Assembly: GCA_963693365.1 (NCBI GenBank)
Contig: CAVNZM010000004.1
Coordinates: 3,462,047-3,526,046 of the forward strand
From: Amoebidium appalachense
Lineage: Eukaryota; Protista; Ichthyosporea
DNA: 64,000 nucleotides
Reading direction: 5' to 3'
Shown here piece by piece: positions 1,624 to 63,636 of the stretch. Position 1 is the stretch's first letter. Each line of letters begins with the position of its first letter. Below the pieces are notes generated by a model that saw only the letters and a program-made list of their open reading frames with translations, made no database searches and was not told the origin of the DNA. The translations under genes were made by a program, and so were the position numbers.

Positions 1624-3490
1624 TTACAGAAAAGGATTTGAGTTAGAACCAACCTTTGCCCCACCAGCGTCTCCCACAGACCCACCCACCCCTGCCGTAT
1701 TCGATACCGGGCCAAATGGGTTGTAGCTGTTCCCCACTCCATTTGGCATAGTACTAGTGGTGGTTTTTGCAGCCTCAGTCGCAAATGGGTTGGTGGGGTC
1801 GAAGCTAGTTGTGGTTTTGCTCGTATATGATTGGAAAACGTCCGTTGGCGCTGCCGTTGTTGTTGTGGTGGTGGTGGGTTGCATGGTGAAGGCGGGGAGT
1901 GGTGCTGCTTGGGGTGCGCCAAAGATGGATGTTTCTTGCACCTCGGCTGCAAACAATGCTGCATACTTGTCACTTGCATTACTCGTAGGGCCTGGCGCAG
2001 GTGTCGAAAATGGTTGTGAAAAAGAAAGCGTCGTGCCGTTTGCCTGTGTGTTTGCTGACGTTGCCACACGCCCGGGGGTAGTAGAAGAACGAACGAAGGG
2101 TGGGCCAAATAGTGACGTTGCAGGGAGTGGCTGTATCGGGGTTGCAGAAAGAGGTGAAGGTGTGATGATGGGGAACGTGGTAGTGACGGGGGTAAGAGCA
2201 GCTCCTTGGCCCAGTCGCTGCTGCTGTGCCGGTGCAAAGAACGGGCCGGTGGTGTTGGCACCCGCCATGGCTGCAGGGGTGGTGGGGGCACTTGCAGTCA
2301 TGCCTGGGTTTGTGTTGAACATCAGTGCATCAAGAGATGCACTGCCGGGAATGGGGGTAAGGCCGGCGGCCACAACACTTGCTCTCTTCTGTTGAGATGT
2401 GCGGCGAATGGATGTGCGTCGGGCAACCTCCACAAATGGATCACCCCCATCACCCTTCTGCGCCGAAGGTGTCGACATGCCTGGAAGAGACTGTGCCCCC
2501 GGGGGAAGAGAAGACTTGCGGGTAATGTTTGCTTGGTTCGTTTGGGCCGCGGATGGGATGGGGGGCATGCTATTGTAGAGGAAACCTGGCAGGTTGGGGT
2601 TGGGGCCGGGGGATGGGAATGGCTGGGTGTTAGCCCCTGCCGGTGTGCTCATCTGCCGGAGTGGGCCGGCAAAGGGGGTGCGGAGGTCGGGGGTGCTGCC
2701 ATGTGTGGACAACCGCCTTGGTGCGTTTGAAGGCCCCGTGCATGATGCCGCATGCTGCTGGATGGTGCTGGAAGCAAACTTCTGGAAGCACATGGGACAT
2801 TCCGCCTGGCTCGAAACGGCAGACTCGGGCTTGGGTGGGTTGGTTAAGCTCATAGACTGTATGCCGCCTGCAAGTGTAGTAGCATCGGTGGTAGCAGGTG
2901 CCGAGAATGGTGCTGCCGAAAAGCCCCCACCGGGGGCATACCACTTCTTTTTCTCGTATTTGTCTCGGATCATGGCTGCTAGCTGGACTGCGGTCCTTGG
3001 GGGTGGGTCTACTTTAGGGTCGTAGGTGGCTAGCCAGACTCTGGCTGCTGCAGCATTACCCCCTTGTTCAAGCTCCTGTGGTACGATATATATCGTGAGC
3101 ATGAAGGGTTGAATGCCACAATGGTATGAGCTAGTAGTATGGCATAATAAAACAGATTAAAGGCAGCGAGGGAATGATTGGCAGAGGGAAAATGAAAAGG
3201 AGGGAAGGGTGGGTGGGTGGGGGGGGGGGGGGGGGGGGGAGAAGAGAGTAGTGAATGTAGGGGCAGAAGGGGGGGGGGGGGGGGGGGGTTGAATGCATCA
3301 TAAAGTACGAAGTGCACAAGAACAACGGATAACACGATGCAGAATGCAACCATACATAAAGAGTATGCATAATAAGGGGATTATTGTGCAAACCAGACTA
3401 ACTATTTCACGGGCTACAAAGAATACGAGGATGTGTGTGCATGTGGTCATGTGCTCGATCATACATACGTCAAGTGTGTGTGAGAGAGAG

Positions 3491-4242: not shown

Positions 4243-6818
4243 GGTTGGGTGTGTGTGCGGGCACAGACGCGCACACATTTTAGTATGTTTGGTGTTTCAT
4301 ACGGGCATGCCTGGGGATGTAGATGTGCAGCATGAGTATGCCCATGCCCGGGTAGCAGGGGAAGTGGAGGAGGTGTTGGGTGGGGTGGGGGAAGGGAGAG
4401 GGGGGGGAGGGGGGGGGGGGGGGGGGGGGGGGGGGAAGAATGTGCTGTAGAGTGTGAAGTGCACATTCATGACAGACAACACGATGCCGATGTCAACGAA
4501 GAGCCAGGGGGGGGGGGGGGGGCGGGGGCGTACGAGGAAAATGAGAAAACAGGAGAAAGAGAAAGGGACAAGGAAAAAGATTCGAAGAGAGAGGAAGCAG
4601 GGGGGGAAGGGGGGGGGGGGGGGGGGGGGGGGGGGGTTGAATGCGGAACACGGTACGAAGTACGCATACACGAAGGACACATGCAAAGGCAAACATTCAA
4701 GTATGCAACATCAGCCATGTGCACAGTATGCGTCATAAGCAGAGCCCATCCTCAGGGAGGGCCCAAGTCATCAATTGCGTCTGAGTTTCGACCCCTTAGC
4801 CCGCGTATATACGACTCTCCAACTCAGACAGCAGCATCAACTGAACTTGGGAGGGTCAACCCGTCTTGATCAAAGACGAGCAGGGTTGCTTATGCAAGCA
4901 AGGTGAGCAAAACGGTGAATATGTGTGTGCAAATTAATGCAGTGCAGCGGAAAATGCGTATGTGCTTACAGATGCACGACACAGAGCAACCATGCCCGGT
5001 TGCATGGAAGTAAAGCGGTCTCCACACAGTGGTCTGTCCTGAAAGGACACCTCTGAAAGAAGACTGGGGGGTTTTGAATGCGGAACACGGTACAAAGTAC
5101 GCATACACGAAGAACACATGCAAAGGCAAACATTCAAGTATGCAACATCAGCCATGCGCACAGTATGCGTCATAAGCAGAGCCCATCCTCAGGGAGGGCC
5201 CAAGTCATCAATTGCGTCTGAGTTTCAACCCCTTAGCCCGCGTATATACGACTCTCCAACTCAGACAGCAGCATCAACTGAATGGGAGGGTAAACCCGTC
5301 TTGATCAAAGGCGAGCAGGGTTGCTTATGCAGCAAGGTGAGCAAAACGGTGAATATGTGTGTGCAAATTAATGCAGTGCAGCGGAAAATACAGAGAGGCC
5401 ACAGAAGCGAAAAAGAAATGCTGAAGATACCCTTGTATACATACGACCATGCACACAAGAATATGATACATAGGTCCCTTCGGGTAAAGAGCTCGAGGGA
5501 GAGAGGGGCACAGACAGCAGGGAGCCGAGGTGAAGGTAGGGGGGGGAGGGGGGAGGGGGGGGGGGGGGGGGGGGGGGGAGGCCAAAGTGGCTGGCTACCA
5601 GTACTAAAGCCAGTTCAGGTATTGTGCAGCATTTACGTGCCCTAGGTGGATATACAAGGGCAAAGGGTGATCGTTTCCGTGCAGGCATGCCACCCGAACA
5701 CATGTGCGTTCCCAAACGTCAGCACCTTTTCAGAGCAAACAAATGGGATAGCAAGTTTATGTGCGTGCTGGAGGCCTAGGGTAGGTGGGCGGGTGTCTGG
5801 TGGGCGGCCGTGCCGCGGGGGAAGGGGGGGGTGGGGGGTGGGAATGCACAACGGAGTACAAAGCATACGCTTATGACAAGCAAAACCATGCAGAATTCAA
5901 AGCACACATAAGGAGGATGCATCGGGGGGGGGGGGGGGGGGGGTAAAGGCAACGTATTAACAGTGTGCAGCACTAAAAGGTGCCCTGTAAGCCTCAGCAG
6001 GAGGCAAACCGGGGGGGGGGGGGGGGGGGGGGGGTTGAATGTGGAACACGAAGTAGGCATGCATGGTGCAGGACACATGCAAAGGCACACATTCAAGTAT
6101 GCAACATCAGCCATGCGCACAGTATACGCCATAAGCAGAGCCCATCCTCAGGGAGGGCCCAAGTCATCAATTGCGTCCGAGTTTCGACCCCTTAGAGCGC
6201 GTATATACGAGGGGGGGGAGAGGGGGGGGGGGGGGGGGGGGGGGGGGCACGTGTGTGTGGTGTGTAGGAGTAGAGTAAAGAACTCGGCAAAAGCATTCAC
6301 TTGAGCACTGCATAACGTGAAGCATAAAAACCCAGCTCTAGCAAAGAAAACAATGATCAAGGAAATATCCGGAGTGTTGGTAATTGACACACAAAATATG
6401 AAAACACCAGGGCCACGGCAAAAGGGACATCAAGTGAAATCAGCAAGATTCAAAGTCAAGTTCTCTATTGCAAAGCTACAGGGACGAGGGGAAGGGCATG
6501 GGCTAAGAAGCCGCAATAGGAAAAGTTGCTGTCAAAAAAAGCTGAAAACAGCTTCGTATCACAGAGACAAGGAATTACGTATGCGGCAAGAAAGACAAAA
6601 TCCAGGCCTGGTTGATTTGGTTCTTTCCTTTCCTTTCTTTTTTTGGGAGGAGAGACCCGGGGGGGTGGGGTGGGGTGGGGGGGGGGGGGGGGGGGGGGGG
6701 AGAAGGGTGGGGGGAGAAGAAGGGGGGAGAAGGGTGGGGAAGGGGGGACGAGGGGACGGAAAGGTGTGTGTGTGCGTGGGGGGGGGGGGGGGGGGGAGGG
6801 GGTGATGGTGGTGTGGAA

Positions 6819-6858
<40 letters not shown>

Positions 6859-7748
6859 TTCGTGGAGCCAAGAGTAAACCCTGATAAAACAACTACCGAA
6901 AAAAAGACGTCGTAGAAACTGAGTAGGAGAGGGGGGAGGGGGGGGAGGGGGGGAGGGGGGGGGGATTGAGTGGTGACGGGTTTTAAGGGTGGAAGGCAAA
7001 GAGTGGGGGGGGGGGGGGGGGGGGGGGGGGGCGGGGGAGGGGGGGGGAAGTTTGACTAGGAGGACAAAACTGCATCAGGTTCTCTTGTGGTGTGCTAAAA
7101 GTGCAACGTAAATGTGCTCCAAAAAGCTCAACCAGCATAACAACAAGCACATGTGGTGAGGCCGTTTTCTGCTTCAATGTTTCCAAGGCAACTCCCACAG
7201 TGCATCCTTAGACACGACAGCAATAATCACACAACCTTGTCACGCACACAGAGTCGAGAGGTGCAGAGAACAAGAAGGAAAAAGGGGGCACAAGCAAAAA
7301 GGCAGCGGGACTATTAAAGGAAATACAGTGCGATCACCATGCTTACAATAACGGGCCACCCCCTTTGTTGTTCTACACAACAACCACCCAAGCACACTTT
7401 CGATCCTGGACCATGTCCCATGAAACCGCTAAGAAAGACACAAGCAAGCACAGAGCACTCAAACACATGTGTACATCAGATGTTCAAGAACGAAGTGTTG
7501 GATTTAAAGGAGAAAACACAGTGGAATCTCACCTTCACTTCATCGTCCGTAAACTTGGCCATCGAGATAGATTTGACACGGTGGCCAACGTGCATCAGCA
7601 GGCCGGAGCAGCGTGTGCAGACAAAGGTTTTGTTGAACATGTTAATAAACCCCGTTCCTCTTTGCCGGCACTCAAAACACTCCCTGTTTGCTGGCTGCTG
7701 GGCAAGAGCCCGCACCTTTTCCTCCCGTTTCTTGTCCTTGGCCGACAT
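1624..7748 (-). CDS. AGFG/HRB-like ArfGAP with FG and NPF motifs (2 exons, ~555 aa)
   Basis: Exons 7748-7533 and 3075-1624 join in phase 0 across a 4.46-kb GT..AG intron (GTGAGA / CACAG). The protein has the ArfGAP zinc finger CFEC-x16-CTRC, then HRVKSISMAKFTDDEVK|ELEQGGN..W..IRDKYEKKKW, typical of AGFG1. The tail is low-complexity with FG, DPF and three NPF motifs, ending NPFL*. Confidence 0.9.
3418..4690. repeat. ~650-bp tandem duplication inside the ArfGAP intron
   Basis: AAAGAATACGAGGATGTGTGTGCATGTGG starts at 3418 and again at 4068. Unique blocks are near-identical between copies, while the G-run and (GT)n lengths differ. Confidence 0.9.
4637..6209 (-). repeat. Three copies of a structured dispersed repeat (4637-4955, 5074-5390, 6035-6209)
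   Basis: The shared core CATTCAAGTATGCAACATCAGCC..GCCCATCCTCAGGGAGGGCCCAAGTCATCAATTGCG is seen three times. A diverged inverted copy lies at ~12791-12930. Confidence 0.85.
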
Positions 7749-8230
7749 CTTCCCGTGGATCTTGGCTGGAAAAACTGGAGATCCCACAACCAACTTTCCC
7801 ACTTATGTATTAGCGCATAGCCATTAACAAAACAGGTGCCGAATTTTTACCGAAAAACACTCTTCTTAAGTGTTTGTAAAGGCATCCAAAATACAAAACA
7901 CACATAGTCTTCCCTCTTTTAAACACACATAGTCTTCCCTCTTTTGCAGAGTTCGCCCCCCTCAAAGTTCACGTGGGTTACCAAGATCTAGAGGCCAGAG
8001 GTTGATCTTACATCTTGTTCCAGGTAATAATTTAGTCTGCCCTAAATTTACGTCACTAATCTCTGGGGGGCTTGACATTCTTTCAGACTGTGTGCTACAG
8101 ACGCAGACAATAAAGTTAACAGTTTTAGACTAATTCGCACCAGCCTGAGGGGAGTCTTTGTGCTGGGCAGCTCAGAGACACGCGGGGGGCACACTGGTGA
8201 AAGGAGGGCGCTGACCCTACGTCTTCGAAG
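7749..8230. promoter_or_regulatory. Putative bidirectional promoter between the ArfGAP gene and COMMD9
   Basis: The divergent ATGs are only 482 bp apart and the interval has no long homopolymers or microsatellites. It contains a 25-bp tandem duplication (7896-7945) and a CRE-like TTACGTCA at 8048. Confidence 0.55.
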
Positions 8231-8766
8231 ATGCAAGCCGAAAGGCCCTCACCTGAGAGCCTGTTGCCGCTTATTTTTTTTGGCCAGGCACCAAACAAGG
8301 ACTTTGTAAGTGCGCTGGGGCGGTTCAGCTTGCTTTGCACTCTAATGCTTCTACTTGCCTCTTACTTGAGCCCCTTCTCCCCGTTTTTCTCCCCTTATCC
8401 CTGATCTCTCCAATCCACTTCTATTCTTGTGGATACGCACGCAAGCACGTGGTCTCGTAGTTGTATATGTGCCTCATACTTTACATAGAACGTCAGCCTC
8501 TCCCACTCTGCTTCCTTTCTTCTCTTCAATGGCCTTAGCCGGCCCCAACCCCCTCCCTCGCCCTGCCTCACCTCCCCCGCACCCTTACCTACCCACCCCA
8601 ACACACAATCTCTCTCTCCTCGGTTTCCACACGACACATACACACACACTCTCTCTCCGAGGCCCTTCCCTCCCTCCCTCCCTCCCTCCCTCCCTCCCCT
8701 CCCTCCCTCCCTCCCTCATCTCCCCCCACCCCCCCCACCCCCCTCTCCCCTCTCTCTCCCTCCCCC

Positions 8767-8825
<59 letters not shown>

Positions 8826-9932
8826 TCCCTCTCTCCCTCTCTCCCTCTCCCTCTCTCTCCCGTCTCCTTCTCCCTCCCTCTCCTCCTCTCTCTCTCTCTC
8901 TCTCTCTTTCATTCGTCCTCACTCCTCTCTCCCTCCGTCCCCTCTCCTCCCTCCCCCAATCCCCTCTTTCCCCAATGTTCCACTGCCTCCTCAGCCCGTA
9001 TGTGTTGGATTCCTTAAGCACACATGCCCTTTGCTCGTTTACTAGTTTGCTCTGTTTTCTCGTTTTCTTAATCTTATGTGCCCATTTCCAGTCTCTGCTC
9101 TTGCGCCATCGCTGGCTCTGTTTCCTCTGCCATTTTGCTTCCTGGCTCCACCCTTCACCTGCCTGACCCACAGTTTGTACGATCACTGCTTGAGCACTGC
9201 ACTGGTGACTGGGGGCAACTCTGAGAATGAAGAAGCAAACTGGGTTAGCATGAAGTACTAATAATAGCATAACAGATTCTCTGGTGCTGACGATTACATA
9301 ACAAATTCTCTGGTGCTAATGCTAACATGTACATAACAAATTCTCTGGTGTTAACGATTACATAACAAATTCTCTGGTGCTAACGCATACATCACAGATC
9401 CGCAGCACGTTTTTTTACTTTGCATCAGGACACACCCAGTGCTCGCCGCCACTGTACCTTACTGGCGCAGTAGCTGGCGCCCTGGAAATCGAACCAGACC
9501 AAGCAGCCAAGGTGTGTGGTCATTAAACTACACGTGTGCAATGGTGGAAACAGGCGCCCCGGGGGGGGGGGGGGGGGGGGGGGGGATATATGTGTGTGCG
9601 TTTGTGGGCTGTTGTGAGAATTGTTTTATGGAGGTATCATTTTTGGACGGGGCAGTGGGGTGGTGTGGGGGATGGGAGGGGTTATTAGATGTACTTGTGC
9701 ATGTATGTATGTGCGTCTGTAGACTGGTTTGAGAATTGTTTTTATGGAGTTATTGTTGTTAGACGGGGCATAGGGTGGTGTGTGTGTGTTTGGGGGAGGG
9801 GGGGGGGGGGGAATATATCCGTACGGTGTTTCCTTTACTGACAGCCCAATTCTGCAGTTGATAGAGGCCACCCATTTGCTCATCAGGCACGTCATCTACG
9901 AAAACTTGCAGCCAGATAAGGTTCAACCCCCC

Positions 9933-9982
<50 letters not shown>

Positions 9983-10699
9983 AAAAGAAAAAGAATAATA
10001 AGAAAGAAAGAAAGAAATAACGAAAAAGAAGAAACACACACACACACACACAAGCGTACACCGACTTGCACAAACCCCTAAAGTGCTCGTGTTATCTTCA
10101 ACTTTGCATGTCTGCACGAGTTAAAACGATGCCAACTCGTTTTTTTGTCCAAGGTTTTGTGTTCAAGGGTTGTTGATTCCAGTTTTGCCTACTGAAACAG
10201 CTGTTGGTGTGCAAATCACCACCGCAACTGCTATATTTGGGCACACAGCCAACCTGCCCCTTAATCTCTCTGCGGCCCTACCTTGGCTTGATGGAGTTAG
10301 GCCTGGGGCAGAAATGACATGGATATGGTACAAAGATATGATAGACTCACCGTTTGTGTCTGAGGATTTCACTTGCTTGTGCAACCCTGATTATTTCTGT
10401 GTTGCTATCGCTATGCATTTGCCTTGTGGTTCTTGCTTCTGCCCTTCTGATACAGCTGTGTGTGTCTGTTCGTGGCTACAGCTGACTGTTTTTGGGCACA
10501 CAGCCAACCTGCCCCTTAATCTCTCTGCGGCCCTACCATGGCTTGACGGAGTTAGGCCTGGGGCAAATAATTTTCTTGCATATTTTCCGTTGTCTTTTCG
10601 CTGTTTGTTCCATCCCTGGCTATATGTTTTCGAATGCTTTTGACGGGAAGGTGGTAGGTGTCGCGTGATACTGACGCTAACTGATTGCTTAGGTCTGAT

Positions 10700-10732
<33 letters not shown>

Positions 10733-12928
10733 CGTGGGTCCTTTTTTCTTTCCTTGGTATCACTGTGGCCCTATTGGACAACGAACCTCGGTTGGGAGGG
10801 GGGGGGGGGGGGGGAGAGTGGAAGGGTGCTTGAGCTATTTGTTGCACACATAGGCACGATCTCGTTTGTCGTGTTGATACACAGAAGAAAAAAAAATCCT
10901 CCTCTGCCCTTCTGATACAGCTGTGTGTGTGTCTGTTCGTAGCCGCAGCTGACTGTTTTTGGGCACACAGCCAACCTGCCCCTTAATCCCTCTGCGGCCC
11001 TACCATGGCTTGATGGAGTTAGGCCTGGGGCAGACAGATTTTTCTTCGTATTTGCCGGATCATTTCTCTGCTTTTCCATCCCATTCTATATGTCCTCAAA
11101 TACTTACGAGTGGAATGCGGTCGGGGCCGAGTGATGCTAATGCTCACTGGTGGCTTGATGCCTGATTGTGTGTGTGTGCGTGGGTGGGTGGGTGGGTGTG
11201 TTTCGTGGGTCTTCTTACTTGCCTTCGAAAAGATTCGAGTCTGTTGAAGAACGAAAACGCAGGGGGGGGGGGGGGGGGGGAGAAAGAGAGAGAGAAGAGG
11301 GGGGGGGGGGGGTTAAGGATTGGCACGAGCTCGTGTATGCCAGTTTGTCGTACAGCTTTTTCCCCTTCTTCTGCCCCTCTGATACAGTTGTGTGTGTATG
11401 TTCGTAGACACAGCTGACTGTTTTTGGGCACACAGCCAACCTGCCCCTTAATCTCTCTGTGGCCCTACCATGGCTTGACGGAGTTAGGCCTGGGGCAGAA
11501 ATCACATGGTACATAGTTATCGTTTGTGCAGTGGGTGATTGTGTGCGCTTAAGCGACAATACCCATAACTATAAAGCACGTGTTTTCTTTAATATATTAG
11601 CATTTATGCAATCGTTATCTTTGTATGATGGATATTCCTATTGCCTTGTTGTCAGTCAATAAGCATGCAACCTTTACCTTCTTATGATAAAAAGTGCTAT
11701 TTCTTTTCACGGGCCGGCAATCGTGCAATTTGCTATCTTTCGGATGAATATTGTTGCTATCCCTGTTGCACTTGACATTTGCCCTTCTGATACAGCTGTG
11801 TGTGTCTGTTCATAGCCACAGCTGACTGTTTTTGGGCACACAGCCAACCTGCCCCTTAATCTCTCTGCAGCCCTACCATGGCTTGATGGAGTTAGGCCTG
11901 GCGCAGACAATTATCACAACTGCTGAACTAAGATGTAAAGACACTAGATTGATTGTAATATTCAGGTTAATAACGTAATGAGTGATTAAGCACCCCTGCC
12001 TCTTGCATCGCAATCACACACACGCTAACTAAAAGCAAGTAAATACACAATGGGGAAGGACTTTTCCAAGAATTTTTGTCACACATGACATTTGCCCTTC
12101 TGATACAGCTGTGTGTGTCTGTTCATAGCCACAGCTGACTGTTTTTGGGCACACAGCCAACCTGCCCCTTAATCTCTCTGCGGCCCTACCATGGCTTGGT
12201 GGAGTTAGGCCTGGTGCAGATATTTTCTAAAGTAGAAAAACATGATGTGTGGACGCTGGTTTCTTCCTGTTGTCGTCCTTTCCTTCTCTCTCTTCTTTCT
12301 TCTTCTTTTTTTTTTTTTTTTTTTTTTTCCGCACGCCCGTGTGTGTGTGTTGGGGGGGGGGGGGGGGGGGGGGGGGGATTGATCCACAAAAGGTGCCCTT
12401 TTTTTTTTTTTGGTACGACAAAACAAGAAGTTGTTTGTGTTCTATACTGGGTTCGCAACTGCATTCGGATGTATGGCGAAGGCAAACACCATACTTGACT
12501 TTCAAGCCGATTATGGTTTGGCTCTGTTATGGTCACTCCATGATTGGGTGTGTTTTTTTGTCTACAACTCCACTGGTGGATCTCTATCTGACTCCCAGTT
12601 GCTCCATACAGATTATGGAACTATTCCCCAAGGGCTTTCCACCGCAGCTGAGCCAGCTCTTGACAAACATAATTTCCAGTGAACTACCTGCTTGGAGAAA
12701 TGATGGTGTGTTCTTTTTTTTTCCCCCTCGGGCTTGTGCATCTCGCCCTTTAACATGTTTGCATTCCCCCCCCCCCCCCCCCGTCCGCGCGAGTTGGGCC
12801 CTCCCTGAGGATGTGCTCTACTTATGACACATACTGTGTTATTTTGCATACTTGAGTGTTTGCCTTTGCTTGTGTCCTGTACCAAGCTCCTCGTCCTGTA
12901 TGTGTACTTCGCACTGTGTTCCGCATTC

Positions 12929-12959
<31 letters not shown>

Positions 12960-13005
12960 GAGGGCCCTCACCACCACCACCACTCCTCCTCCGACCTCTT
13001 TACCA

Positions 13006-13039
<34 letters not shown>

Positions 13040-13173
13040 GGAGGCTTCGTCGTAAACGTGTGCTTACGTACTCTGTAGCACCTCCTTCCCTCCCTCCATC
13101 TCTAACATTTTCCTTGGATGTCATCCCCATGGCTTGTCCTTCCTTGTACATGTCCACTCTATCCTCACTCTGC

Positions 13174-13257
<84 letters not shown>

Positions 13258-13680
13258 CCCCCCCGGGGGCGCTCCCCCTGCACTCTGCTGCGCCCTGCCC
13301 CGTACGGTATTGCATGTGATTTTTTGTTTGTGTCCTTGCGTGCCACTTCGTGTGTGGCTTTCTGTGCCCTGACCTTCATGCTTTCTCCTGTGTGCCAAAT
13401 CCCTGCCTTGCGTTCAACCACCACCACCAGCCAACACACACACGCACTCGTAACATACACACACACACACACACGCACGCACACACGCACACACACACAC
13501 ACAAACGTCCCCACCGCCTTTGACTGACACGTGTGGGTGGTACAGCTGCCCGTGGGCGCATCAGCCTACCCCGTCTTGTGGATTTCAGCTGCCGGGTGGA
13601 CCTCAAGACCGTATCAAATGCATCGATACGGATGGCTGTGCCTGCTGTGGTCTGTACAATGATGGTATTGTCCTCCTCCC

Positions 13681-13722
<42 letters not shown>

Positions 13723-14153
13723 CGCCTTCTCCTCCTCTTCCTCCCCCCTCCCCCCTCTCCCTGCCCCTTGCCCCTTCTCCCCTTCTTCCTCATCCCCCTT
13801 TACTTTCCATTTCATTTTGTGCGTGAGAGTGCATATGCACCACCTGATGATACACACACACACGTGCACACACTGGCATTTTTAAGAAAGACTGAATCAA
13901 GCTTAAGTAGGAGTGGGTTAGTGTGTGTGGTAAGTCATCACACACATCAAGGAACCCAGTTGATGTCTTCTTTTGAACAGTCGAGTTGCAAGCAGCCTTC
14001 GATTGGGAGTGTCATAATTAGGACTACCCGTTTTCCCATTTTCATGATGTCGGTGTGTGCACATGTGCGCGTGTGGGTGGACGGGTGGACGGGTGGCCGT
14101 GTGTCTGCGCGTGAAAGTGTGTGTGTGTGCACGTGTGTGTGTGCCCGCGTGCG

Positions 14154-14188
<35 letters not shown>

Positions 14189-14390
14189 CTCTTTCGAAGT
14201 TGGTAGCACTTGGGCTAAATACATGCGGCAAACCCAGGTTGCAGAGGAAGGCGGCAGTCCAGATGCACATGTGGATGGGGAGGGTAGGCGGGCCGTGACG
14301 TTTGAGCTGCCGCCAGCCACACTGGATGCCGTGCTGGAAAGTCTGGGCAGAATAAGAGACCAATTGCAGGCCACAAGTCCACCGCAATAG
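8231..14390 (+). CDS. COMMD9: COMM domain-containing protein 9 (6 exons)
   Basis: Exons 8231-8305, 9398-9511, 9858-9920, 12612-12705, 13546-13664 and 14238-14390 are all GT-AG and phase-compatible. The peptides LFPKGFPPQLSQLLTNII..W, ISLPRLVDFSCRVDLKTVSNASIRMAVP and VTFELPPATLDAVLESLGRIRDQL match COMMD9 as I recall it (ISLPRLVDLDWRVDIKT..RMAVP; LDGLGRIRDQL). Confidence 0.93.
9268..9385 (+). repeat. Four-copy ~30-bp tandem repeat just upstream of the COMMD9 exon 2 acceptor
   Basis: The unit CATAACARATTCTCTGGTGYTRAY occurs four times. Confidence 0.85.
10186..12225 (+). ncRNA. Intronic array of six H/ACA-box snoRNA-like units (10186-10317, 10440-10572, 10905-11039, 11372-11504, 11780-11912, 12093-12225)
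   Basis: Each ~133-nt unit folds as hairpin (TGCCC..CAGCTG..CAGCTG..GGGCA), hinge ACACAGCCAAC, hairpin (CTGCCCC..CTCTG..YGGAG..GGGGCAG), then an ACA/ATA/AAA box. All are sense to COMMD9 intron 3 and the spacers are largely unrelated. The hinge is not a perfect ANANNA. Confidence 0.7.
12791..12930 (+). repeat. Diverged copy of the ArfGAP-intron repeat in COMMD9 intron 4
   Basis: TTGGGCCCTCCCTGAGGAT..TGCATACTTGA..TGTGTTCCGCATTCAA followed by poly-C is the reverse complement of 4637-4770, with substitutions and indels. Confidence 0.85.
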
Positions 14391-14483
14391 CGGGTAGGGT
14401 GATTGTGTGGGTGGGTGGATGGGTGGGTGTGGTGGTGCTTGGTTTTTTTTTTTTTTTTTTGGTTTTTTTTTTGGTTTTTTTGT

Positions 14484-14520
<37 letters not shown>

Positions 14521-15554
14521 TTTTATATGTGGGTGGATGTATGGGTATGGGATGGTATGAATGCATGACATGTTGGTATGAATGGAATTGTGCTAGAAGA
14601 AACTCTCTGTGGTGTTTCCCTGTAGGTTATGTTCCCTAACGAATGAATTGAAATATATGTAAGAGGATACATCGATGACTTGTCAATACAACACACGTCC
14701 CGAACACCGCCACACCGCGAATACACGACTCCTTCGAATAGACGGCTGCAGTTTTGCATAGATGAGAATGTGGCAGTGTATGTCAGACAGATTCGAGCCG
14801 AAATGAACGTACAGCCAGACAAGACGCTATCATGTAAATATGGATATAACCAGCAGGCCAAAAACAATAGCCGATATCGAAGAAATTTGAGTCTATTTAT
14901 GAGATGATTAGTTTTATCTACGTATACGTAGAGCTGGCAATGTAGCGGTGTAATCATGCTATATCTACCCCATACACAAATAAATAATCCCTGTGTGGGC
15001 CCTTGTTCGAAATCAACGATGTTTTTTAAAATTGTGCTCTGTCTACCTGCATCCATATCCCCCCCCCCCCCCCCCCCCCCCCCTACAGCTTCTCATGATC
15101 AGCGGCAATGGAGTCAATAGCCAATTGCAACCCCCAAATCCACCGATATACCGGGTCTATATTACACCTGCATATTACACCTGCGCACATGCATGGAAAA
15201 GAATGTGTACCTGAGTCCATAGTAAGGCTTTCCTTAGAGCTGCAAATCTAATTGAATGACGTTCTCGCAACTAAATTATGTAGTGAAGCATACAGTGTAC
15301 AACATGTTTTAGGCCATGGCTGTGCCCCGGACCCAGTTTTGCGTTCACTGTTATCTACCAATAAATATGACCATAACGAACCTTTTTTGTTCAATTAAAT
15401 GCGTATCCAATCCAGTTTGTTATTTTGTAGCCATATTTGAAATTCTCTGTGAACTCTTGCCGGCACTAGCTGGAAAAAACCGTTGGGGCAACGGAGCACT
15501 ACATAACTGCAAGAGCACTTTCAGAAGTCAGAGTCCACCATACTTCAAAAGTGA

Positions 15555-19304
<3,750 letters not shown>

Positions 19305-20765: not shown

Positions 20766-24586
<3,821 letters not shown>

Positions 24587-24619
24587 GGTGTTGGTTGCCA
24601 AGAAGATTAGATATGAGAA

Positions 24620-24770
24620 AGGGGGTTTGTAATGACTTGAGAAGAATTGAGGAGGGGAAGGAATGAGGAACTTCGAGGGGTTTGTAAATGACTTAAAGAG
24701 AAATGAGGAAGGGAATTTGTAATTAACTTGAGGAGAAATGAGCAGAGGGTTTTGTAAAAGACCTAAAGGG
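24620..24770. repeat. Degenerate ~35-bp tandem repeat upstream of the NAT start
   Basis: A unit like GGGTTTGTAAATGACTTGAGAAGAAATGAG occurs about four times. Confidence 0.6.
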
Positions 24771-27586: not shown

Positions 27587-39674
<12,088 letters not shown>

Positions 39675-45332: not shown

Positions 45333-46580
45333 TACCCTGTCAACCTTTAACTCTGCCTAAGCCGTGACCATATCATAGTAGCACTCGAATCACCACAAAC
45401 CTCTAGCATGTGAGGCCCCCACCCTCACCCTCTCTGCCTCACTTTCCCCAAGCCCTATTACTTGCTCATGGAAAAGCATACTGCTTTACGAGCCCCTGTG
45501 ACAAATATTGATCGGCAGGTGAATCTAGGTGCGAGTGCACCGTTAAGTCTTGAGAGTAGTTCTAACTGGGAAAGGGGGAGGGGGTGGGGGTGGGGGGGGG
45601 GGGGGGGGGGGGGGGGGACAGGGAGGTGGGGGGGGGGGGGAGGGGGGGGGGGAAGGTGGAGGGAGAAGGGGGAGGAGGGGGGAATGGGGTAGGGACAGGT
45701 AGTTAGTGGTGCCCCCCCCTCCCCCCACCCCCTCCCCCGCCCCTTCTGTTTAAGGGGTGGGCCACGTTCCGACGGGCTCAGAGATACTTTCCAGGGGAGG
45801 GAAAGGTTGGAGTCAAGATCGTACAGTGGGAAAAAATAAACATGTCATATGACTTACACGCTGAATTATTGTTCCTGCAACACACTACCAGCATGCAACA
45901 AGAACCTTATGACGTTCCCTCAAAATTCCCGCGTACAGGATTTTTAGTCGAGTTGTTTTTGTGGAACCACAGAGTCCCTCCCCCCCCCCCTCCCCCCCCC
46001 AAAAAAAAATAATAAAAATAAAATAAAAAATAAAGAATAAAATGCATCCACTTAACCGGTACCCCCCCGCCTCTACATTGAAAGGAACGGCAGTCTTGAG
46101 GCCACACACACCTACCTACACACACACACACATGCAAGTGAAAGGATTGAGAACTCGCGCGTGGGCACTTTTATTTTTTATTTTTCTTTCTTTTATTTTT
46201 ATTTTATCCCGTCTTGTTCCCCGAGACACCCCCCAGGGGCTCTTAAAGAAAGTACCGTCTTCCACACATCACCGGCTGTATCCTTGTTTGAGTCGCCGTG
46301 CTAAATTGAAAGGTGCACATGTAGGAGCCCACCCTGTCCATTTTTCGCTCTGTCTATGCACCATATCATTGTTAGCAATAGATTCACCACAAAATCTTCA
46401 GCATACAAGCATATGAGCCCTCCATCCCCACCCTCCCTACCTCACTCTGCCCAAGCACAAATACTTGCACACGTAAAAACATATCGTTTTACGAGTTCCT
46501 GCGGCAGATATTATTAGGCAGGTGAATCTATGTGTGATAGCTCCGGCAAGTCTTAAATGTGTTCTAGCTTTCTTTAGGGG
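45333..46580. repeat. Old ~250-bp direct repeat pair (~45333-45575 and ~46330-46575)
   Basis: Collinear shared blocks: ACCCTGTC, CCATATCAT, TCACCACAAA, CCTCACT..CCCAAGC, TTTACGAG, GGCAGGTGAATCTA, AAGTCTT..GTTCTA. Confidence 0.75.

Positions 46581-52783: not shown

Positions 52784-63636
<10,853 letters not shown>

Follow-up and report, generated by a model that had tools for sequence, protein, structure and literature searches.

A putative intronic cluster of H/ACA-type guide RNAs in a COMMD9-like gene of Amoebidium appalachense

Six repeated units in the third intron of the host gene

We analyzed a 64,000-nucleotide stretch of Amoebidium appalachense DNA, referred to here as the window. It carries a COMMD9-like gene on the plus strand, and one intron of this gene holds an array of six related units. 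The features are listed below in window coordinates.

8231..14390 (+): COMMD9-like host gene, from the open frame, Pfam, and RNA-run contigs
8231-8305, 9398-9511, 9858-9920, 12612-12705, 13546-13664, 14238-14390 (+): coding exons of the COMMD9-like gene, with GT-AG borders
9921..12611 (+): intron 3, with the whole array inside; donor from an RNA-run contig, acceptor from frame and AG
10186..10314 (+): copy 1; hairpin 1 divergent, hinge and hairpin 2 conserved, 3' box AAA
10440..10569 (+): copy 2; 3' box ATA at 10567-10569
10445-10452, 10485-10493 (+): pocket strands of hairpin 1 in copy 2, with the hinge box at 10500
10516-10522, 10552-10559 (+): pocket strands of hairpin 2 in copy 2
10570-10904, 11037-11371 (+): two 335-nt spacers, co-duplicated with units, 66-71% alike
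10905..11036 (+): copy 3; 3' box ACA
11372..11501 (+): copy 4; 3' box AAA, one pocket change in hairpin 1
11780..11909 (+): copy 5; 3' box ACA, one broken pair in the lower stem of hairpin 2
12093..12222 (+): copy 6; 3' box ATA, one broken pair in the lower stem of hairpin 2

The six exons of the host gene form one frame with a single terminal stop, with exon 2 starting at 9398 or 9440. A 613-nt contig from run X9 links 8175-8305, 9398-9509, and 9856-9919 and then departs from the window. Exons 1, 2, and 3 are spliced in this contig, which sets the acceptor of exon 2 at 9398, and a contig from run X14 (same sample as X9) joins exons 2 and 3. We treated X9 and X14 as RNA runs, and the exon-joining contigs support an RNA origin. 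The junctions of exons 4 to 6 were placed by GT-AG and frame only. When single exons were searched against Pfam, exon 5 matched COMM (E=0.001) and exon 3 matched COMMD9_HN (E=0.096), both under the curated cut-offs as single exons. The donor of intron 3 (9921-9926) reads GTTCAA followed by a long C-tract; it is unlike the other donors of the gene, yet it is used. A minisatellite of five copies of 29-35 nt (9239-9421) lies directly before exon 2.

An ArfGAP gene identified by Pfam (7476-7757, −) lies head-to-head with COMMD9. Judging from their translations, we take 16169-18760 (+) to resemble pterin-carbinolamine dehydratase, 20766-24640 (−) arylamine N-acetyltransferase, and 28929-29480 (+) an F-box protein. 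A tRNA-Ser(GCT) gene occupies 29775-29857 (−), and 700 nt away there is a partial copy (30490-30563, 85% alike) that received no ARAGORN call.

The units measure 129-132 nt from the first stem to the last base of the 3' box, and all are in the sense of the host. A repeat search returned six plus-strand copies at a spacing of 255-467 nt. A 22-mer allowed up to 3 mismatches gave 6 matches in the window and 0 in 100 shuffles, while a covariance model built from the six returned those six at 131-169 bits, the next best hit scoring 16.8 bits. We rejected this last hit (61415-61559) as a seventh copy because it is a poly-C/poly-G homopolymer artefact, so that neither the 22-mer nor the covariance model found a credible further copy elsewhere in the window. 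A 28-base stretch of the unit had no exact match in metagenome contigs. The initial annotation, made from the DNA letters, had described six sense units in one COMMD9-like intron, and the 22-mer, the covariance model, and the X9 contig bear this out. The array matches the intronic polycistronic layout, in which several guide genes sit in one spliced intron in the sense of the host.

Copies 2 to 6 are 92-97% identical to one another, with copies 5 and 6 at 97% and copies 2 and 3 at 93%; copy 1 is 83-85% identical to the others. The spacers between the units are, in order, 125, 335, 335, 278, and 183 nt long. They had been called mostly unrelated, which held for 14 of 15 pairs of downstream flanks (0.43-0.57 identity, background for a shuffled mean of 0.52) but not for the exceptional pair after copies 2 and 3. 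These two spacers are 66-71% alike, and we therefore conclude that unit and spacer were duplicated together. Since that duplication, the spacer has changed far more than the unit, which still stands at 93%. In run X10, from a strain, all 13 listed substitutions in intron 3 fall in spacers and 0 in units; 10 more differences, outside that list, are near contig ends, where units also lie.

Fold and boxes compared with the box H/ACA class

The consensus fold of the units has two hairpins with a shared lower-stem motif, an internal loop in each, and an 11-nt hinge between them. This is the hairpin-hinge-hairpin-tail order of box H/ACA RNAs, with one pocket per hairpin. Under the two-hairpin model, 95.4% of 173 cells are paired, as opposed to 26-45% when the partners are slid. 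The lower stems of hairpin 1 reach pairing probabilities of 0.7-1.0 in all six copies and those of hairpin 2 reach 0.85-1.0 in four of six. The double hairpin proposed earlier thus fits the family as a whole, but hairpin 2 is weakened in copies 5 and 6, each of which breaks one pair of its lower stem, and for copies 4 and 6 the fold of lowest energy deviates from the model.

An ACA-type box ends every unit, reading AAA, ATA, ACA, AAA, ACA, and ATA in copies 1 to 6. Both A's are invariant and the middle base occurs in three states; ACA, AUA, and AAA are all accepted as 3' boxes in H/ACA RNAs. In H/ACA RNAs, the target position lies about 14-16 nt from the box. In hairpin 2 of all copies, 15 nt separate the top of the 3' pocket strand from the 3' box, a distance within that range, and so the terminal box and its spacing are as the initial annotation had described them. 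The ACA of the hinge also lies 15 nt below the top of the 3' strand of hairpin 1 in copies 2 to 6.

The hinge departs from the class. The H box is defined as ANANNA (PMC6984369, accessible text), and all six copies carry ACAGCCA, with A1 and A3 present and the sixth A absent. The H box had already been noted as noncanonical, and because the strict form fails, we filed the units as an H/ACA-type variant rather than a strict member. The initial annotation had also pointed to Rfam, which named no family: at gathering score, the window gave only a tRNA and nothing for the unit, and when the array and copies 1 and 2 were scanned by E-value, all matches were at chance level. Among these, ACA64 (RF01225) has a similar length and layout, and its hinge consensus also lacks the sixth A of ANANNA. 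It scores 11-11.5 bits where the gathering score is 35 (E=2.4-3.3), which is at chance level and no evidence of homology, and its pockets differ from those of the unit.

Conservation within the units is uneven. Among copies 2 to 6, variation affects 2 of the 43 columns in pockets and hinge, compared to 13 of 63 columns in the upper stems and loops (Fisher p=0.024). Unpaired strands that are better kept than stems are the pattern of an antisense guide. The geometry, the pocket conservation, the better preservation of units than of co-duplicated spacers, and the absence of marks of mobility all agree with the earlier proposal of an amplified, selected H/ACA-like family. We consider it likely that the six units are a tandem-duplicated intronic cluster of H/ACA-type guide RNAs.

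A predicted target in LSU helix 38 and the divergence of copy 1

We searched for targets in rDNA of other eukaryotes taken from public contigs. An unbiased set of 52 rDNA loci was fetched with an unrelated 18S motif, and a biased set of 109 loci was fetched with a pattern that contains the candidate site. About 520 stretches in a prokaryote genome collection carried the eukaryotic 18S motif and represent contaminant rDNA contigs (L002-L052).

The pocket of hairpin 1 in copies 2 to 6 pairs with a site in LSU rRNA by 7+9 pairs, in the 15-nt register and with two bases left unpaired. The site was the best match for this hairpin in 7 of 8 operons, the eighth being without the site; six of the seven had been fetched with the site-holding pattern, and only L007 is unbiased. 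Among the unbiased loci, the site was in the top three matches in 15 of 52. The duplex energy of −13.6 kcal/mol was equaled by 0 of 40 shuffles in the pooled, biased set. On the unbiased rRNAs, the match was not significant alone: with L007, 23 of 200 shuffled pockets matched as well, and the best Watson-Crick match common to at least 2 of the 52 loci had 10 pairs, which 21 of 300 shuffles reached. Full pairing of the 3' strand needs five purines before the site, which only 12 of the 109 site-bearing loci have; the guide therefore predicts five purines at this place in the host's own LSU rRNA. The pocket change in copy 4 is the sole one in hairpin 1 of copies 2 to 6, and it falls at the pocket base that the predicted target leaves unpaired.

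The plant-type locus L040 has a U at about position 1010, and the predicted U lies 9 nt to its 5' side. We take the U of L040 to be the equivalent of three helix-38 positions, Arabidopsis Psi1013, yeast Psi1004, and human Psi1731. This helix is rich in pseudouridines, and the table in the accessible part of PMC2794176 carries these positions. Yeast Psi990 corresponds to Arabidopsis Psi999 (PMC2685112, accessible part), and its equivalent lies 5 nt upstream of the predicted U, which thus sits between known helix-38 pseudouridines. The exact base is unlisted in the accessible portions of the modified-site tables (PMC2794176, PMC2685112, PMC2653536, PMC2780460). Our literature search found neither the unit family nor a pseudouridine there; supplements and most subscription papers, which lay outside its scope, may list the site. 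Human Psi1847/1860 (ACA32) was considered as the target of hairpin 1 and rejected, because its neighbors in the available text of PMC11724314 and the offsets in L040 place it elsewhere.

As we envision it, the hairpin 1 pocket of copies 2 to 6 would clamp the rRNA on both sides of the second U in the CAGUUUUAUCAG site by 7 plus up to 9 pairs and would convert this uridine to pseudouridine in helix 38, the A-site finger of the large subunit. The nearly invariant pocket of hairpin 2 likely guides a second site. For that pocket, we found no rRNA target beyond chance (164 of 300 shuffles did as well; at best, 4 of 40); the candidate sites, which lay at the 5' end of the LSU, in LSU domain II, and in 18S rRNA, did not beat shuffles.

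Alternatively, the units could be of H/ACA type and match helix 38 by chance, guiding other sites (in snRNA or lineage-specific rRNA) or none. The unbiased shuffle rates of 7-12%, two of three pocket types being without an rRNA target, and the silence of the accessible modified-site tables on this base speak for such a coincidence. On the other hand, a chance match would have to recur as the same best site in 7 of 8 operons, at the canonical spacing of 15 nt, leaving two bases unpaired and falling between known helix-38 pseudouridines, and the only pocket change in hairpin 1 among copies 2 to 6 would have to coincide with the one unpaired position. As for snRNA targets, a CAB box in the hairpin loop is a feature of H/ACA scaRNAs, and a search of all copies for four CAB-like tetramers found none. 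We find a coincidence of this kind unlikely. Support for helix 38 as the target of hairpin 1 in copies 2 to 6 is moderate, judged from pairing with other species' rRNA, and if the units do form a guide RNA cluster, we favor this target over its absence. The plausible target in helix 38 for hairpin 1 of copies 2 to 6 weakens the earlier label of an orphan or novel class.

Known guides to helix 38 include yeast snR5 (Psi1004), snR8 (Psi986), and snR49 (Psi990), human ACA52, and Arabidopsis snoR81 and snoR80 (accessible portions of PMC2794176, PMC2685112, PMC2653536, and PMC2780460). Like these, the unit is predicted to modify the A-site finger, within 5-9 nt of their sites. Unlike them, it would act on another uridine, 9 nt before Psi1004 and 5 nt after Psi990, and it has no Rfam match.

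Measured against the consensus of the others, copy 1 is changed at 18 of the 60 columns of hairpin 1 but at only 1 of the 67 columns of the hinge and hairpin 2 (p=5e-6). Its first hairpin had been described as rewritten yet still folding, with different pocket strands. The divergence and the fold were confirmed; the pockets differ by 4 substitutions and 1 deletion, of which the 5' strand has 2 substitutions and the 3' strand the rest. Judged by eye from the alignment, this pocket does not fit the helix-38 site. Since copy 1 keeps hairpin 2 and has lost the helix-38 match, its hairpin 1 would be either retargeted or retained for its fold. Target switching of snoRNAs by point mutations is a described process (PMC6984369, accessible text). 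No rRNA target for hairpin 1 of copy 1 beat controls convincingly (86 of 300 and 20 of 40 shuffles were as good), and candidate sites in 18S rRNA were no better than shuffles. A match at the 3' end of 5.8S rRNA was equaled by 1 of 40 shuffles; we treat it as a lead only, because its alternative fold was chosen after the hit had been seen.

Retargeting of one paralogue, as proposed in the initial annotation, agrees with divergence confined to hairpin 1 and with loss of the helix-38 pairing, but it is unproven because this hairpin has no convincing target. What we see is compatible with retargeting, with a fold kept just to support hairpin 2, and with gene conversion of the 3' half. That copy 1 is active on a new target seems to us possible, with the balance leaning against it.

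Alternative origins, release from the intron, and related systems

A second alternative is that the array is a local tandem duplication homogenized by gene conversion, with incidental hairpins and no RNA product. Several results are in line with this. The initial annotation had proposed a covariation check, which showed no excess over shuffles (444 of 500 reached the observed count); of the model pairs, five show changes in a single partner and one in both partners. The folding energy of whole units is unexceptional (z −0.04 to −1.91), no Rfam family matches, and many further repeats, local as well as dispersed, occur in introns of this genome. Homogenization without an RNA product would leave three things to be accounted for: unpaired pockets and hinge that are more conserved than stems, conservation that stops at the A-N-A box in all copies and gives way just outside it to 66-71% identity or background, and a box at 15 nt in both hairpins. 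We therefore judge it quite improbable, and an array of guide RNAs is the reading that we carry forward.

For such an array, each hairpin would, after splicing, bind dyskerin/Cbf5, Nop10, Nhp2, and Gar1. An endonuclease would open the spacers, and exonucleases would trim to the protein-protected ends. Exonucleases alone would halt at the outermost units of a cluster, and release of the inner copies calls for an endonuclease; in yeast, polycistrons need Rnt1 for this (PMC10557570, accessible text). The spacers share no common local hairpin that would mark cleavage. In a fold of the whole intron, helices of 13-26 bp join the 5' C-tract and CA repeats to G-tracts and GT repeats that lie in two of the spacers and close to the 3' end; the 26-bp helix (9927-9952 with 12352-12377) could, in this prediction, loop intron 3 out. 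We regard the long-range pairing as a lead rather than a mechanism, because the other three spacers are without such tracts. In X9, introns 1 and 2 are uncovered outside simple repeats and parts of intron 3 are covered, in contigs that cannot rank levels. Two of the intron 3 contigs (11000-11157 and 11431-11809) cross unit-spacer junctions; they therefore represent precursor or DNA and not a trimmed RNA.

These observations also bear on whether the main product is instead an intron remnant of about 2 kb that is H/ACA-capped by copies 1 and 6, like SLERT, or a partly processed ladder. The need of polycistrons for an endonuclease, spacers that share no hairpin, and contigs that span the junctions would suit such a long RNA, and an intron with more than one snoRNA can yield a long RNA with snoRNA ends (PMC10730139, accessible text). 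Those contigs come from a single sample and may derive from pre-mRNA or DNA. Inner and outer copies are conserved to the same degree and the spacers are not conserved, which fits six separate guides. Compared to SLERT and other sno-lncRNAs, the array has six copies and unconserved spacers. A long main product is thus very improbable. Less probable still is that the unit belongs to the small mobile elements (SINEs, MITEs, or snoRNA-derived retroposons), as all six copies in the 64 kb lie next to one another, point the same way, and have no poly-A tails, and as the target-site duplications and terminal inverted repeats that the initial annotation named as marks of a mobile repeat were found at none of the six (longest flank repeats 3-7 nt, at chance level; terminal inversions 4-6 nt).

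Several snoRNAs in one intron had been described as unusual. This is true against the one-per-intron rule of vertebrates but not in Drosophila, where H/ACA genes generally lie in intronic clusters (PMC3089462, accessible text). The guide RNA cluster proposed here shares this arrangement of several H/ACA-type genes in one intron with the Drosophila clusters and with those of rice, where one intron reportedly holds several H/ACA guides. It differs from both in its sequence family, in a host (COMMD9) that is not ribosome-related, in lacking a strict H box, and in having one copy diverged in one hairpin. In chicken, tandem duplication within a host gene keeps the guide regions while the rest drifts (PMC2653536, accessible text). 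Like vertebrate cis-duplicated snoRNA paralogues, the array was duplicated inside one host gene; those paralogues occupy different introns, whereas the units here share one. Particular to this array are the uncatalogued family, the ACA-type box in the hinge, the untabulated helix-38 site, and the divergence of one copy in one hairpin.

If our reading is correct, a guide family is missing from Rfam and a further pseudouridine is predicted in the A-site finger. In yeast, losing several pseudouridines of this finger affects the reading of stop codons (PMC2794176, accessible text). The layout itself is already known, and the effect of one extra rRNA pseudouridine would likely be small. The array would also offer a compact natural system for testing how a single intron releases several H/ACA RNAs and how a duplicate can acquire a new target in one of its hairpins with the other unchanged. 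A fuller model would combine an uncatalogued family with an ACA-type box after both hairpins and an unrecorded A-site-finger pseudouridine, a copy 1 whose hairpin 1 has moved to a new substrate (the 5.8S 3' end being the best lead) with hairpin 2 kept, release by pairing of C-tracts/CA with G-tracts/GT in place of local hairpins, and some transcripts that stay long as H/ACA-capped RNA; the chance that all of this holds jointly is slim.

Other repeats occur in the window. Within 8306-18712, the introns of COMMD9 and of the next gene tend to carry C-tracts or CA repeats at the 5' end and G-tracts or GT repeats at the 3' end, clearly so in 4 of 7. Two pairs of 210-240 nt are 73-75% alike (35344-35551 with 62557-62766 and 45334-45567 with 46331-46569). 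A dispersed repeat, 75-97% alike, lies in introns of three genes (4637-4955, 5074-5389, 6035-6210, and 12791-12930, also 3289-3368 and 18249-18330); it ends beside a C-tract, and the copies seen share the orientation of their host genes.
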